Assembly (NCBI GenBank): GCA_019894715.1
Contig: JAGXOA010000248.1
Span: forward strand, 1 to 24,000
Reading direction: 5' to 3'
Length of the DNA: 24,000 nucleotides
Source of the DNA: Promethearchaeota archaeon
GTDB taxonomy: Archaea; Asgardarchaeota; Lokiarchaeia; Sigyniarchaeales; SOKP01
The notes under the pieces were generated by a model. That model saw nothing but the letters and a program-made list of their open reading frames with translations, was not told the DNA's origin and did not search any database. The position numbers and the translations under genes are program-made. Numbering within the stretch: position 1 is the stretch's first letter; every line of letters begins with the position of its first letter. Shown piece by piece: positions 2,436 through 11,686 of this stretch.

Positions 2436-2440
2436 GGTGA
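2436..2440 (+). promoter_or_regulatory. Shine-Dalgarno GGTGA, 7 nt (from GGTG) upstream of the proposed ATT start at 2447
   Basis: Sequence is agtgtGGTGAattgaaATTaatttt. The GGTG-to-start spacing matches the ESCRT-III gene exactly. Confidence 0.45.
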
Positions 2441-2446
2441 ATTGAA

Positions 2447-2962
2447 ATTAATTTTGAACGAAAATTAGGTTGTATTGGTTCAGGTATTTTCTTATTATTA
2501 GGTATATATTTCTTTTTTGGATTAAATAATTTTACAGAATTTTCTTTTGATTTTTATTTCATAGGTCCCACATATTATACCACCCCAGATATAATACTTG
2601 TATATATAAGTGGTGGAACAACAGCAATTATCTCTATCATTTGCTTTATTTGCATTTTTCTTTCTTATGAAAATAAAAAAATTGGTTCTCAATTATTGGT
2701 AATAATGGGATTTTTATCTGTATTTCTAAATGTAATTCCTTATGCTACAATCACTTATTATGGTCATAATTTCTATGGTACTAGTACCCGTGATATTTCT
2801 ATATCCCTTTGTACAACATTATTTTTTATTCCAAATATATTAATTCTTCTAAGTGGCTTCTTAGAATTAAAATCTTATACAGAAGAAAGATATATTCTAA
2901 AAAAAACTATAATAGAGCTAGTTATATTAGCCAAGATTAGAAGTAAAGAAGTTATAGTTTAA
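2447..2962 (+). CDS. Small polytopic membrane protein (about 4 TM), function unknown
   Basis: The ORF track gives only 2696..2962 (TTG start). The same frame stays open back to a TGA at 2438-2440 and encodes clearly hydrophobic sequence: NFERKLGCIGSGIFLLLGIYFFFGLNNFTEFSFDFYFIGPTYYTTPDIILVYISGGTTAIISIICFICIFLSYENKKIGSQLLVIMGF... An 85-codon stop-free stretch is unlikely by chance in DNA this AT-rich. No canonical start exists in it, so ATT 2447 downstream of GGTGA is proposed. Confidence 0.6.
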   Translation: MNFERKLGCIGSGIFLLLGIYFFFGLNNFTEFSFDFYFIGPTYYTTPDIILVYISGGTTAIISIICFICIFLSYENKKIGSQLLVIMGFLSVFLNVIPYATITYYGHNFYGTSTRDISISLCTTLFFIPNILILLSGFLELKSYTEERYILKKTIIELVILAKIRSKEVIV

Positions 2963-7470: not shown

Positions 7471-8097
7471 TTAATCTTTAGATTTTAGCCTATTCAGTTC
7501 CTTTTCAAGTTCATCAATCTTCTCGTTTGATACAACACTAGGTAGTGCACCTGTCATTTCTACATTAATTTCAGCATCAATTTCCCCTAGTATATTATTT
7601 ACTTGACTGTCTGTAACTGCTGTATCTAAAGTAATTCCGTCAATACCTTCCGCAGTAATTTCAGAAGTAACTTCGAAGTCTTCTATATCCATATTGATAT
7701 TTGTCATCATTTCTGTAATTTGAGGGATCGAAAGTGTAGCTTTAAGGGTCGCAACTGATTGAGAAATATTTTTCATAATTCCTGCAACATCGCTAATAGC
7801 ACTTGCTTGTTCTAATTTAAATAATAGTCCTTCTAAATTAGTTCGAAAAGCATCAATAGATCGAGCCTGTTTTTTTACTTGTAAATAATTACGTGCATGG
7901 AATTTTGATCCATCCATATCTCCTTGTTGTCTTAGCCTAACTGCTTTATCTCTGGCTAGTTTTGAAGTCATTTCTAACTTTTTTGCTTGTCGTAACAATC
8001 TTTTGTTAAAAACCTTTAACTTTATTGTTGCAGAACGAATATTATCAGCTTTCTTGCCTCCAGATAACCAACCACTAATATCTTTTAAAAATCCTAT
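7471..8097 (-). CDS. ESCRT-III (Snf7/CHMP family; Vps2/24/46-like with C-terminal MIM1-like helix)
   Basis: The ORF track gives 7471..7998 from an internal TTG. The frame is open up to a TGA at 8106..8104 and encodes (M)GFLKDISGWLSGGKKADNIRSATIKLKVFNKRLLRQAKKLEMTSKLARDKAVRLRQQGDMDGSKFHARNYLQVKKQARSIDAFRTNLEGLLFKLEQA... This is the basic N-terminus plus alpha1-alpha2 hairpin typical of ESCRT-III, followed by an acidic C-terminal half ending 'IDELEKELNRLKSKD'. Start proposed at ATA 8097..8095 behind GGTGA, giving 208 aa. Confidence 0.9.
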   Translation of the reverse strand: MGFLKDISGWLSGGKKADNIRSATIKLKVFNKRLLRQAKKLEMTSKLARDKAVRLRQQGDMDGSKFHARNYLQVKKQARSIDAFRTNLEGLLFKLEQASAISDVAGIMKNISQSVATLKATLSIPQITEMMTNINMDIEDFEVTSEITAEGIDGITLDTAVTDSQVNNILGEIDAEINVEMTGALPSVVSNEKIDELEKELNRLKSKD

Positions 8098-8103
8098 AAG
8101 AGA

Positions 8104-8108
8104 TCACC
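8104..8108 (-). promoter_or_regulatory. Shine-Dalgarno GGTGA upstream of the ESCRT-III ATA start
   Basis: Minus strand reads ttttttaGGTGAtctcttATAggattttta. That is GGTG, then 7 nt, then ATA. The TGA within GGTGA is the in-frame upstream stop, so only TCT, CTT or ATA can precede the conserved N-terminus. Confidence 0.55.
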
Positions 8109-8681
8109 TAAAAAATTATTATTCTTTTTATAATATATATAAAATCTAATTATATAAAATTATTTTCGGAGTCCAATTTTCAAATTTCTCTATTGAAGAA
8201 AAAATTTGAAATAATGTTCAATATATATCAAAATAATAACTTCTATTTGGTGATTATTTTTCTTCATTTTTCATTTTCTCATAATTTTTAATGAAGACAT
8301 AGATATGTTTAATTTAGTGATTGCTTATAGAAAAAAAAGTGATAATGAAAAAACATTTCAATTGCATTTTCAAAAACCTTCCTGTTGAACTCCCTTTCAT
8401 TATCTTCAACACCCGTAGAAGTGTTCTGGTTGGATTAATGCAACTGTAATTTCTGGCAATAAAACTCTTTGGGATAGAGAACATAGTGGAAATCCTTCCA
8501 TAAGCTCAAGATCCAAAAAAAATTTAAAAATATAAATTTAAAAAAAGTGAAAAATTCTTGATTTTTATAACTGATTATATGTTTTTATAAATTTAGCAAA
8601 CAATTAAAATAATAATTTAGATTGTTATAATAATAAATAACAAAAATTTTCTAAAATAATAATTATTTAAGGTAAAGTGAA

Positions 8682-9896
8682 ATGTCCTCTGTAGATTCAA
8701 AATTATATCAGTTTGCTGTACAGGAAGCAAAAGAAGCTGTTGCATTAGATGCTAAAGGCCAGTTTAAACTAGCAATCGTAAAATATCAAAGAGCGGCAGA
8801 AAGTTTAATTCAGTTTATAAAATTTAGTAAAAATCATATTATGAACCAGAAATGTAAGGCTCAAATAGGAGAATATCTTGAACGTGCTAAGGCACTAAGA
8901 GATCATATTGGTGGATCTCGTTCAAAAAAGAGTACACAAAAGAAATCTGGCAGTAAACCATCCGATGATAAAAGGGAAGAAGAACCTGAAAATATTTCAA
9001 ACGAAGAGCAAGACTTATTCGATATGGTTTCTGGAACAATTATAACAGAATCACCTGAAATAAGATGGAAAGATATAGCTGGACTAAGTGATAGTAAACA
9101 ATTAATAAGAGAAGCAATAGTATTACCCATCTTAAAACCAGAATGGTTTACTGGAGTTGTTAAACCTTGGAAAGGAATACTCTTATTTGGTCCTCCTGGG
9201 TGTGGTAAAACACTATTAGGAAAGGCAGCTGCATCAGAAATTAAAGCTACTTTTTTTGGTACTTCTGCATCTGATTTATTAAGTAAATGGCTTGGAGAAA
9301 GTGAAAAATTAATTAGTTCTTTATTTAAATTAGCTAGAATAAAGGCTCCAAGCTTAATATTTATGGATGAAATTGATGCTATAGCAACAAGAAGAGGGGG
9401 ATCTGAAAGTGGGGGTGAAAGAAGGGTAAAAACACAATTATTAAGTGAAATTGAAGGTTTAAAAACATCTCATGTTAAACCATTATTAGTAATTGGAGCT
9501 ACTAATCATCCATGGGATTTAGATAATGCTATTCTTAGTAGATTCCAAAAACGAGTTTATGTACCACTACCAGATATGGAAGCTAGAACAGCAATATTTA
9601 AAATTCATACGAAAGGTGTAAATATGCAAATAGAAGATGATGATTTTGTAGAACTTGGAGTACGCTCAGAAGGATATTCTGGAAGAGATATTGCTAATAT
9701 TTGTCAAGAAGTTGTAATGCTTCCTATTCGGGAAATAGATATGAAAGGTATTTTAGAAGACCCAAATTTGGATATAAAGAGGAGAGATGTTAATATCAAT
9801 GATTTTAAAAAAACTCTTAAAAAATCTAAACCCGTATTGTACAAAGATGATCTGATGCAATATGATAAATGGGAAGAAAAATATGGCCAAACTTAA
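8682..9896 (+). CDS. vps4: Vps4 / CdvC-type AAA+ ATPase (N-terminal MIT domain, AAA domain, Vps4 C-terminal helix)
   Basis: 404 aa. The N-terminal three-helix MIT-like region is 'LYQFAVQEAKEAVALDAKGQFKLAIVKYQRAAESLIQFIK..IGEYLERAKALRDHI'. Walker A is 'GPPGCGKT' and Walker B is 'SLIFMDEIDA', followed by 'GATNHPWDLDNAILSRF' and a C-terminal 'YDKWEEKYG'. Confidence 0.95.
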   Translation: MSSVDSKLYQFAVQEAKEAVALDAKGQFKLAIVKYQRAAESLIQFIKFSKNHIMNQKCKAQIGEYLERAKALRDHIGGSRSKKSTQKKSGSKPSDDKREEEPENISNEEQDLFDMVSGTIITESPEIRWKDIAGLSDSKQLIREAIVLPILKPEWFTGVVKPWKGILLFGPPGCGKTLLGKAAASEIKATFFGTSASDLLSKWLGESEKLISSLFKLARIKAPSLIFMDEIDAIATRRGGSESGGERRVKTQLLSEIEGLKTSHVKPLLVIGATNHPWDLDNAILSRFQKRVYVPLPDMEARTAIFKIHTKGVNMQIEDDDFVELGVRSEGYSGRDIANICQEVVMLPIREIDMKGILEDPNLDIKRRDVNINDFKKTLKKSKPVLYKDDLMQYDKWEEKYGQT

Positions 9897-9921: not shown

Positions 9922-10869
9922 ATGGAAAAACAAAGAGAAAGAGCAAAAGAAGTCTCGAAAGAGATTAAGCAAAAGACAGATAAAGAATTAGATAGGCTCA
10001 GAAATGAGCTTGAAAGATTAAAAAAGCTTAAAGAGCAAAAGCTAAAAGAAGAAGAAGAACCAAGAAAGAAAGAATCAGAAGAAGAAAAAATTGTATTTAT
10101 TCCTCAAGAAGATAGTGGAACTATGGAAGAAATTACTCCTGATCTCAACATAGAAACTACAGGAATCGAAAAAATTGAGGAAAAACTGAGTGAAATGGAT
10201 GAATTTCTAAGTAAAGAATTAGAACGAATTGATCATAAAACCTATGAAAAAAATGCAGAATATATTGAATCCCAACTAATTGAATTAGAAAAAGAGATTG
10301 TTGGAGAGACTGGACTTATTAAAGAAGAATTAAGTCCATATGAAAAATTATTGGAAAATCATCCGTGGCTTGAGGAACCTAGATATGAATATATGTACCA
10401 TATCCCAAATAAAACTAAAAATCCCAATGATTTTGAATCTTGGCAAGATGAATGGGGAAAAGTATTATTTGACTATGCAAGATATGCAATTTTACATATT
10501 CTCTACTTAACAAAATTATATAGTGAAGATCCTTTCTCTAAATTTAAGAATCGCAAAAAAGCTATAAAAGAAATTGCAGATAAATTGGTTGTTGATGAAT
10601 TAGGAGAATGGTTATCAAAAAAACAAGATAAGATTCGAATTTATTGGAAAACTTTAGATATTTGGGCAGAAGAGATATATGATTGGGTTTATGAAATGGG
10701 TAAACTTGATCCAATACTTATTTATGAAATTAGAGATGCAAATCAAGAATTTAGTTCTCTTCCTAAAGAAGAAATAGAAAAAATATTTAATCTACTCAAT
10801 AAAGATGGGAAAGGAAAGATTATCAAAACAACTGATGGTCATATTGCTTTTAAAATAAAAATTGAATAG
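9922..10869 (+). CDS. Vps25-like ESCRT-II subunit (tandem winged helix) with a ~150-aa charged coiled-coil N-terminal extension
   Basis: 315 aa, starting 26 nt after the vps4 stop. The C-terminal ~165 aa read 'FESWQDEWGKVLFDYARYAILHILYL..DPFSKFKNRKKAIKEIADKLVVDELGEWLSKKQDKIRIYWKTLDIWAEEIYDWVYEMGKLDPILIYEIRD..EFSSLPKEEIEKIFNLLNKDGKGKIIKTTDGHIAFKIK'. This follows the Vps25/EAP20 pattern as I recall it (W..li..Y; F.N..i.R.l; aEW; iyW+s..eWa..Iy.wv; yEl; L..L.k.GKa; g.KF). The N-terminus 'MEKQRERAKEVSKEIKQKTDKELDRLRNELERLKKLKEQKLKEEEE..' is K/E-rich heptad-like sequence. Confidence 0.75.
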   Translation: MEKQRERAKEVSKEIKQKTDKELDRLRNELERLKKLKEQKLKEEEEPRKKESEEEKIVFIPQEDSGTMEEITPDLNIETTGIEKIEEKLSEMDEFLSKELERIDHKTYEKNAEYIESQLIELEKEIVGETGLIKEELSPYEKLLENHPWLEEPRYEYMYHIPNKTKNPNDFESWQDEWGKVLFDYARYAILHILYLTKLYSEDPFSKFKNRKKAIKEIADKLVVDELGEWLSKKQDKIRIYWKTLDIWAEEIYDWVYEMGKLDPILIYEIRDANQEFSSLPKEEIEKIFNLLNKDGKGKIIKTTDGHIAFKIKIE

Positions 10870-10882
10870 TTTATTAAAATTT

Positions 10883-11608
10883 TTATAATGATGGGAAAAA
10901 CCATTGCTTTCCTTTCAATATAGATTCTCTAAATTTTGCGAGTCCACTATCTTCTAATGACTTTAATGCCCTAAGAGACCTATCCTGGGTCCAATTTAGA
11001 TCATTTATAATATCTTCTAATAAAATAACACCTTTACCTTTATCTTTTACTATTTCAATTACTTTCACCTGATCAGCAGTGTATTGGATAGGAAAAAACT
11101 GAACCATGATGGCTCCTGAATCTAGTTTTTTAACATCCTCTATTACACCTTTTTTTTCGAGAAGATTCATGGCCTTTACCACATCACTGAGATCTACTCT
11201 ACCTTTTAAATCTCCTGTATTCACAATATCAAAGATCTCTGATAATGGCAATAAACCTACACCTATTTCCTCTTTTCTAAGGAGTATGCGCTGATATGCT
11301 AACATACCTAAATTATTTAAATTCATTTTATTTAATTTCTTACCTAAAACATCAATTTCCTTTATTTGTTCTTTAATTATTTTTGAAGAAGGGATATTAT
11401 ATTTTTTTTGTAAATATTCAACTTCTTCTTTTAAATCTGGATTTAAAGCTAAAATAACACCATGATTTTTTGCCATTTCATCAATCTTATCCTTTGTTAG
11501 ATTCTTCACTGAAGCTTTTGCTTCCATTTCTTTAAATTTTAATTCTGTACCTTTTTTTCTCATGGCTTCTCTAAGATCTATCTCATTTTCAATCTTTCTT
11601 ATACCCAT
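10883..11608 (-). CDS. EAP30-domain ESCRT-II subunit (Vps22/Vps36-like)
   Basis: The ORF track starts at TTG 11623. I prefer ATG 11608 (MGIRKIENE...), which has GGTG 9 nt upstream. The C-terminal two winged helices read 'GVGLLPLSEIFDIVNTGDLKGRVDLSDVVKAMNLLEKKGVIEDVKKLDSGAIMVQF..ADQVKVIEIVKDKGKGVILLEDIINDLNWTQDRSLRALKSLEDSGLAKFRES..KGKQWFFPSL', matching the EAP30 pattern that ends in 'yWFPsl'. Confidence 0.8.
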   Translation of the reverse strand: MGIRKIENEIDLREAMRKKGTELKFKEMEAKASVKNLTKDKIDEMAKNHGVILALNPDLKEEVEYLQKKYNIPSSKIIKEQIKEIDVLGKKLNKMNLNNLGMLAYQRILLRKEEIGVGLLPLSEIFDIVNTGDLKGRVDLSDVVKAMNLLEKKGVIEDVKKLDSGAIMVQFFPIQYTADQVKVIEIVKDKGKGVILLEDIINDLNWTQDRSLRALKSLEDSGLAKFRESILKGKQWFFPSL

Positions 11609-11686
11609 AGTAAATAACACCAATTTTTAATTATAGTAGTAATTAAATAATAATAAAATAGATATATTTATTTATCTAATCTGAAA

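Follow-up and report, generated by a model that had tools for sequence, protein, structure and literature searches.

The locus studied here raises the question of where translation begins in a gene whose reading frame opens without a canonical start codon. The gene encodes an ESCRT-III protein and lies on the minus strand of a 24,000-nucleotide stretch of DNA, hereafter the window, which corresponds to positions 1 to 24,000 of the forward strand of contig JAGXOA010000248.1 in the metagenome-assembled genome (MAG) of a Promethearchaeota archaeon, an Asgard archaeon of the Lokiarchaeia (GCA_019894715.1; 3.36 Mb, 288 contigs, 26.8% GC). An earlier inspection of the letters alone, which we call the sequence-only reading, had noticed that the frame appears to start at an ATA codon behind a perfect Shine-Dalgarno (SD) sequence and had proposed either genuine AUA initiation or an ATG-to-ATA change, caused by an assembly error or by a mutation. 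The checks that it suggested included the sequence over positions 8095-8097, an alignment of orthologous N termini, and a whole-genome scan for SD-led open reading frames (ORFs) without a canonical start. With the results of these checks at hand, we consider it probable, at roughly 85%, that translation of the ESCRT-III mRNA starts at AUA 8097-8095, guided by the SD, and that this is normal practice in the lineage.

The head of the ESCRT-III frame

Upstream of the gene, the minus strand reads TAA(8118-8116) TTT AGG TGA(8106-8104) TCT CTT ATA(8097-8095) GGA TTT TTA AAA GAT ATT. Read from the ATA, the proposed initiation codon (8095..8097, minus strand), the coding sequence (7471..8097, minus strand) comprises 208 codons followed by the stop TAA 7473-7471, and it is assigned to the Snf7 family, as a CHMP1-3 / Vps2-24-46-like member, by a Pfam Snf7 match, similarity to CHMP1B, and the NCBI orthologue P0002. 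The earliest in-frame canonical codon is TTG 7998-7996 (7996..7998, minus strand), which is codon 34, and no ATG, GTG, or TTG is found between the TGA and this TTG. The sequence-only reading had pointed to the same TTG and to the 33 residues that would be lost by starting there, and both statements were borne out.

We then compared the start region with the 16S rRNA of the same genome, the 3' end of which (contig C241) reads ...GGATCACCTCCT, so that the ideal SD is AGGAGGTGATCC. The sequence AGGTGATC (8102..8109, minus strand, read from 8109 to 8102) is a perfect complement to this end over 8 nt, and no SD in the genome-wide set described below is longer. Within it, GGTG occupies 8108-8105, 7 nt ahead of the ATA, and the gap from GGTGA to the ATA is 6 nt. 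Among the ATG codons of the genome that follow closely on an upstream stop, 6 nt is likewise the most frequent distance between the A of GGTGA and the ATG. The perfect GGTGA, with GGTG 7 nt before the ATA, had been described in the sequence-only reading and proved to be part of this longer match. No SD was found ahead of TTG 7998 or ATG 7971 upon inspection of the minus-strand sequence.

The codon that immediately precedes G-F-L-K-D was recorded in 110 orthologous loci, which were drawn from numerous studies and assemblers independent of each other; it was ATG in 86, ATA in 15, TTG in 7, and ATT and ATC in 1 each. In the alignment of N termini, the ATA is thus matched by ATG or TTG in orthologues, and none of them starts at the position of TTG 7998. 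The motif that follows the start, GFLKDISGWLSGG (codons 2-14; 8056..8094, minus strand), is kept in over 100 orthologous loci, including some with an overall identity as low as 38%. All four genomes of the window's genus carry the ATA together with the same SD. After deduplication, the ATA-type upstream sequences amounted to 8 distinct ones from at least five genera, 4 of them from other genera and studies; GGTG(A/T) was present at the identical 6-nt spacing in 8/8, and no canonical start was found upstream of the ATA in any of the 8. Furthermore, a maximum-likelihood tree, built quickly from 85 orthologues, required at least five changes of start-codon class, four of which fell on well-supported branches, and an ATA pair (L084/L100) was nested within an ATG clade. 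The ESCRT-III start has therefore switched repeatedly between ATG and ATA.

The NCBI automated pipeline has already made an ATA start call for an orthologue of this gene. The NCBI orthologues P0002 and P0003 have 208 aa and start at ATA, and P0002 ("Snf7 family protein," contig JAFGOA010000207.1) has its MGFLKD start on an ATA behind AGGTGATC, exactly the arrangement seen in the window. However, this was a homology-driven call for which the evidence is unstated, and the protein on record for the window's own genome (P0006) is truncated to 166 aa, being read from ATG 7971 with 42 residues missing.

This truncated record exemplifies an alternative in which translation starts at a downstream canonical codon, either TTG 7998 (175 aa) or ATG 7971 (166 aa), and the 33 to 42 codons upstream of it are untranslated leader. 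ORF finders limited to ATG, GTG, and TTG indeed return the 175-aa product. The upstream codons do not behave as leader, however. In a strain that is about 10% divergent, represented by one of the contigs from other runs described below, the ATA is kept and TTG34 is replaced by TTA, while codons 2-33 contain 9 codons with synonymous changes versus 2 with non-synonymous ones. It follows from this synonymous excess and from the TTG-to-TTA replacement that the 33 codons are translated and that TTG 7998 is an internal leucine codon rather than the start; judged by these substitutions, codons 2-33 are under purifying selection. In addition, GFLKD.S.WLSG is conserved in more than 100 orthologues, with ATG or TTG directly before the motif.

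The conserved domain also begins upstream of the TTG. In P0001, the stop-to-stop translation of the frame, in which TTG 7998 is residue 36, Pfam Snf7 (PF03357) matches residues 28-194 with 56.5 bits against a cut-off of 27.3, and the match thus starts 8 residues upstream of the TTG. CHMP1B, one of the best solved relatives (E value of 6e-10), aligns with query residues 21-207. With the CHMP1B alignment starting at residue 21 and the Pfam match at residue 28, a start at the TTG, which lies inside helix alpha1, would cost about 15 residues of this helix in addition to the N-terminal motif. On these grounds, and with no SD before either codon, a downstream start is very unlikely. From the ATA, the predicted N terminus would be (M)GFLKDISGWLSGGK, i.e., M-G-F-L-K-D, presumably with methionine as residue 1.

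In a MAG of 288 contigs, an assembly or sequencing error that masks a true ATG has to be considered. Nevertheless, the ATA recurs in the 8 distinct upstream sequences, which stem from different studies and assemblers, as well as in contigs from other samples. Indeed, Logan contigs from runs of other samples and from two other studies retained both the ATA and the SD, with no alternative letter over 8095-8109; these being contigs rather than raw reads, they show that the ATA is present, and rare variants may be hidden. About 50 other genes of the genome moreover display the same pattern, as detailed below. The probability left for an error is practically negligible.

Similarly, the gene might have been inactivated recently, its ATG having mutated to ATA on the way to a pseudogene while a paralogue took over, and the genome indeed has another ESCRT-III gene, on contig C113, which starts with ATG. 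This explanation is extremely unlikely: the ATA is kept across several genera, the protein is intact, conserved, and free of stops, the substitution pattern speaks for purifying selection, and the SD stands at exactly N6 in all ATA lineages. Both forms of the ATG-to-ATA change raised in the sequence-only reading were thus refuted, the assembly error by the 8 distinct upstream sequences and the contigs of other studies, and the mutation toward a dead gene by the selection on the N-terminal codons and by the TTA found in the sister strain in place of TTG 7998. The option that it had put first, genuine AUA initiation, is supported by the conservation of the ATA, its interchange with ATG and TTG, the SD, and the genome-wide recurrence of the pattern.

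The in-frame TGA (8104..8106, minus strand) lies within the SD, two codons ahead of the ATA, and the frame is closed again by TAA 8118-8116. Reading of this TGA as a sense codon was ruled out because the TAA lies three codons further upstream with no start between the two stops, and because ATT and ATA starts are found behind TAA and TAG stops too, where they also occur with SDs of the GAGGT/GGAGG type.

ATT and ATA starts in the genome and in the family

SD-led starts were counted in the window genome in two ways. In the first count, we recorded the triplets that follow GGTGA-N6 and open ORFs of at least 100 codons. ATT was found 12 times, ATG 10 times, ATA 8 times, TTG 3 times, and ATC twice, and every other triplet occurred at most twice. 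In the second count, 2,475 non-overlapping frames of at least 120 codons were searched with any SD 5-mer at a spacing of 5 to 7, and codons were kept if there was no canonical start upstream in frame or within 8 codons downstream. This gave 69 ATG, 29 TTG, 29 ATT, and 21 ATA, with the other codons at much lower numbers (AAA 8, AGA 4, TTT 3, TTA 2, TAT 2, and AAT 1). ATT and ATA were thus observed 50 times in total, compared to 4.8 times expected from the control codons (Poisson p 3e-33). The genome-wide scan thereby returned about 50 genes with an ATT or ATA start, and the ATA of the ESCRT-III gene turned out to be no oddity of one key cell-biology gene but one instance of a use of ATT and ATA that extends over the genome and the family.

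A second measure, independent of the SD, was the distance between a stop and the first canonical start of the frame. This distance was at least 40 codons in 81 frames and at least 60 codons in 49, where the chance expectation, estimated from base composition, is about 11 and fewer than 1, respectively. Additionally, 10 genes were tested for the position of their Pfam domain, and in 7 the domain starts ahead of the first canonical codon. These seven encode a GPN-loop GTPase, two Ras-like GTPases, a RagA-like GTPase, a chorismate mutase-prephenate dehydratase, in which the first canonical codon comes 220 codons into the frame, aIF5A, and Kae1. The genes with ATT or ATA starts are ordinary conserved genes, GyrA and aIF1 among them. 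A second case lies in the window itself (2436..2962, plus strand), where GGTGA (2436-2440) is followed after 6 nt by ATT 2447, which opens a 171-codon frame for a hydrophobic membrane protein; the first canonical start of this frame lies 83 codons downstream.

We next looked at orthologues in related genomes, in which the codon matching an ATT or ATA start of the window genome alternates among ATT/ATA/ATC, ATG, and TTG. For aIF5A, it was ATT in genera g1, g5, g9, and g13; elsewhere, ATG or TTG was found. The GPN GTPase starts with ATT or ATA in g1, g2, g3, g5, g6, g9, g10, and g11, and with ATG in all sister-family genomes shown, while Kae1 starts with ATT or ATC in g1, g3, and g11. For a quantitative comparison, the SD-anchored count was applied as in the window genome to 400 kb each of two family-mates, G010 and G018, and of a closed sister-family genome, G032. 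ATT, ATA, and ATC together made up a share of 0.34 of the SD-led starts in the window genome, 0.36 in G010 (28.6% GC), and 0.16 in G018 (30.2% GC). In G032 (31.0% GC), this share was 0.04, which is the background level, and the difference from the window genome was significant (Fisher p = 0.0009). When all non-ATG codons were considered, they accounted for 54% of the unambiguous SD-led starts in the window genome versus 11% in G032, with TTG being heavily used. These data, which come from small samples of related genomes, are an indication that the ATT/ATA trait is shared by the family-mates and absent from the G032 sample.

Three further observations were made in the course of these comparisons. 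The relaxation of start codons seems to track lower GC content (26.8-28.6% versus 30-31%). In the aIF5A orthologue L061 (G019), which reads TGA ACG AAA GGT GAG AAA GCT TTT TCA ATT AAA, the aligned start position is the TTT before the conserved S-I, and no ATG, GTG, TTG, or ATH is present there. Finally, the Kae1 frames of the sister family (L211-L215) measure about 570-640 codons and those of the window's family (L186-L210) about 340, which suggests that Kae1 has been fused, probably to Bud32, in only one of the two families.

The ESCRT-III protein and its neighbors

By its sequence, the ESCRT-III protein of the window belongs to the Vps2/24/46 (CHMP1-3)-like type, because its best solved relatives are CHMP1B, CHMP2A (1e-8), CHMP1A (2e-5), and, more weakly, Heimdallarchaeal ESCRT-IIIB (3e-4); a Vps20/32/60-like protein follows at 5e-3. 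It shares the Snf7 domain and a near full-length alignment with CHMP1B and the other Vps2-24-46-type proteins as well as with Heimdallarchaeal ESCRT-IIIB (PDB 9ftl). It differs from CHMP1B in about 18 additional N-terminal residues (MGFLKDISGWLSGGKKAD) that precede the aligned alpha1. Within the N-terminal region, the conserved motif GFLKDISGWLSGG is probably an amphipathic membrane-binding helix.

Like the CHMP1B-type proteins, the window protein ends in a MIM1-like helix, IDELEKELNRLK (7483..7518, minus strand), which aligns with the C-terminal DELSQRLARLR of CHMP1B. We take this stretch to be a MIM1 motif, and it is likely to contact the MIT domain of Vps4. The genes for Vps4 and ESCRT-II adjoin the ESCRT-III gene. 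By profile match, the Vps4 gene (MIT + AAA + Vps4_C; 8682..9896, plus strand) starts with ATG and is divergent from the ESCRT-III gene; it is followed by an ESCRT-II (Vps25-like) gene (9922..10869, plus strand) and by an EAP30 / Vps22-36-like ESCRT-II gene (10883..11623, minus strand). ESCRT-III, Vps4, and the two ESCRT-II genes form the classical Asgard ESCRT cluster, and there is nothing unusual about the ESCRT-III protein itself. The second ESCRT-III paralogue of the genome (L002:1438-2094 = G000:C113, plus strand) has an ATG start and an MG-LKD N-terminal motif and is 19% identical to the window gene.

Initiation apparatus, proposed mechanism, and known systems

We then turned to the components that would act at such starts. 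No tRNA for Met or Ile was found in the genome by ARAGORN, whether or not introns were allowed. By a pattern search, we found an initiator tRNA gene on contig C214 (G000:C214, minus strand, about 42831-42967). It has an A1:U72 pair, the three G:C pairs of a GGG/CCC anticodon stem, and a CAT anticodon and is thus conventional. The gene contains two introns, of which the first follows the anticodon loop and the second lies in the T loop.

The gene for aIF1 (SUI1; G000:C56:21737-22051 minus / L032:1471-1797 minus) itself lacks a canonical start. Its frame reads TGA CAA AAA AAA ATT AGC GAA GAT GAA ATT TGT, and the sole ATG comes about 80 codons in. ATT or ATC (ATC in g5) is the only candidate start in 17/22 family orthologues shown, where it stands behind "AAAGGTTGTGA," and the other 5/22 have an in-frame GTG. 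In the sister family, the aIF1 start is GTG, TTG, or unclear, and none is evident in G032. An alignment of aIF1 from the family with that of sister families revealed no substitution that could be interpreted as a relaxed-fidelity change. We hypothesize that the ATT start of aIF1 acts as a feedback that would keep the aIF1 level permissive for AUU and AUA.

For the ESCRT-III gene, we propose that translation would begin at AUA 8097-8095 on a short-leader mRNA. A TATA-box-like sequence, TTTTATATATATTA (8131..8144, minus strand), conserved in same-genus orthologues, is a putative archaeal promoter, and the usual -26/-27 spacing from it would place the transcription start near 8113, such that the leader has a putative length of about 16 nt. 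In SD-led archaeal mRNAs, pairing of the SD with the anti-SD places the 30S subunit in advance, after which the initiator tRNA samples the triplets in the P site. Here, the 8-nt SD would pair with the 3' tail of the 16S rRNA and bring the AUA into the P site at the optimal distance of 6 nt. An ordinary Met-tRNAi (CAU) would then presumably be accepted on a match of two bases out of three, with a mismatch at the third base, and give M-G-F-L-K-D. As the initiator tRNA gene is conventional, pairing of Met-tRNAi through the first two bases is the simplest mechanism, and it would be aided by a strong SD at the best spacing. In this Lokiarchaeal family of 27-30% GC, AUU and AUA, and rarely AUC, would be used as starts of SD-led genes at about the frequency of UUG. 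The probable driver is a G-to-A/T mutation pressure that would keep converting ATG, and a permissive start-codon check would tolerate the products.

Initiation at or near the ATA could also take another route, in that the mRNA is leaderless, that an Ile-tRNA or a modified CAU tRNA reads the AUA, or that ribosomes shift by +1 from the GTG embedded in the SD (8107-8105), which lies in the -1 frame. Agmatidine-type modification of C34 is the normal archaeal way to read AUA, which counts in favor of the second variant. However, the conservation of the SD at a fixed distance points to a start that is leadered and SD-guided, and ATT is more common than ATA genome-wide, which an AUA-specific tRNA modification would not explain. 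The frameshift was ruled out, as the GTG frame ends after 10 codons; moreover, no conserved slippery site was found, and orthologues of the ATG type need no shift. These other routes are, taken together, unlikely, and we retain SD-guided initiation by the ordinary initiator tRNA.

Several points weigh against this proposal. Its support is at the level of sequence, and no RNA run was found to contain the locus. The association of the ATA with a GGTG-type SD at the ESCRT-III start, striking as a raw count (8/8 ATA-type versus 1/66 ATG-type), reduces to 4 contrasts that are phylogenetically independent, with 3 in agreement and 1 against, and it is not significant. Genome-wide, the SDs before ATT and ATA are only marginally longer than those before ATG and TTG within the SD-selected set (5.6 nt versus 5.4 nt, p 0.04), so that compensation of an ATT or ATA start by a stronger SD is plausible but unproven. 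The tRNA set of the MAG is incomplete, with 36 Rfam tRNA matches, and a second initiator-like tRNA is possible. Finally, aIF1 opposes full accommodation on non-AUG initiation complexes, and destabilizes them, in studied archaea (PMC6237735); the efficiency of the AUA may accordingly be low.

A wider reading of the data is that a whole Lokiarchaeia family has an expanded initiation code. AUU and AUA would be regular starts on SD-led mRNAs (about a third of them here, with more than half being non-AUG), they would serve housekeeping and eukaryotic-signature genes alike, among them ESCRT-III, Ras/Rag-like GTPases, GPN, Kae1, and aIF5A, and aIF1, itself initiated at AUU, would hold stringency low through a feedback similar to that of infC and eIF1. 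We give this reading an even chance.

Starts of this kind are known as single cases. NCBI translation table 11 allows ATT, ATC, and ATA as starts, and isolated bacterial examples such as infC are textbook knowledge; in bacteria, AUU, AUA, and AUC starts are isolated, regulatory, and inefficient exceptions. The AUU of infC, which encodes IF3, resembles the present case in that a near-cognate AUH start stands behind an SD and is used with a normal initiator tRNA. Likewise, a fidelity factor has a poor start codon, as does aIF1 in the window's family with its ATT. Unlike in the infC case, ATT and ATA make up about one-third of the unambiguous SD-led starts here, the organism is an archaeon, and proofreading would fall to aIF1 in place of IF3. 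Mitochondria, which initiate at AUA and AUU, likewise use third-position-relaxed AUN starts in extremely AT-rich genomes. However, they have a single, f5C34-modified tRNA-Met, read AUA as methionine internally as well, and lack SDs, whereas in the window genome ATA is a common internal isoleucine codon and the starts found are SD-led.

Eukaryotic near-cognate initiation is comparable in that e/aIF1 sets the stringency of start selection, and its own mRNA has a weak start, as in eIF1 autoregulation (PMC6237735) and as suggested here by the ATT of aIF1. Eukaryotic initiation differs in relying on scanning and Kozak context, with near-cognate starts being mostly regulatory or located in upstream ORFs, whereas here the SD anchors the main ORFs of housekeeping genes. 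Among Asgard archaea, the tubulin AtubA of Kariarchaeaceae (Heimdallarchaeia) "likely" uses "a rare ATT start codon" (Sci Adv 2026, PMC13394414). As in the window, this is an Asgard eukaryotic-signature gene with a truncated deposited protein, restored in that case via an ATT behind a plausible ribosome-binding site. It concerns a single gene in another Asgard class, however, the start is ATT and not ATA and is called rare, and the paper contains no genome-wide or comparative analysis. In a full-text search of the literature, this remark on AtubA was the sole relevant item, and no genome-wide ATT/ATA initiation in archaea was found. While single near-cognate starts are thus known, what is new is their scale, at about one-third of unambiguous SD-led genes, that they are confined to one family, and that aIF1 is involved.

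To reconstruct the origin of eukaryotic cell biology, Asgard proteins are cloned and modeled from database sequences. If ATT or ATA is the start of 2-10% of the genes in some Lokiarchaeal families, gene finders limited to ATG, GTG, and TTG delete functional N termini, namely, in ESCRT-III, half of alpha1 together with the probable membrane-binding helix and, elsewhere, the P-loops of GTPases. A truncation of this sort has already been repaired by hand in the AtubA paper (PMC13394414). If the expanded initiation code is real, Asgard proteomes produced by such callers would be systematically truncated at their N termini. For the study of translation, the pattern offers a natural system in which a eukaryotic-type archaeal initiation apparatus (aIF1/1A/2) tolerates third-position mismatches at scale, and it brings with it a testable hypothesis of aIF1 autoregulation.

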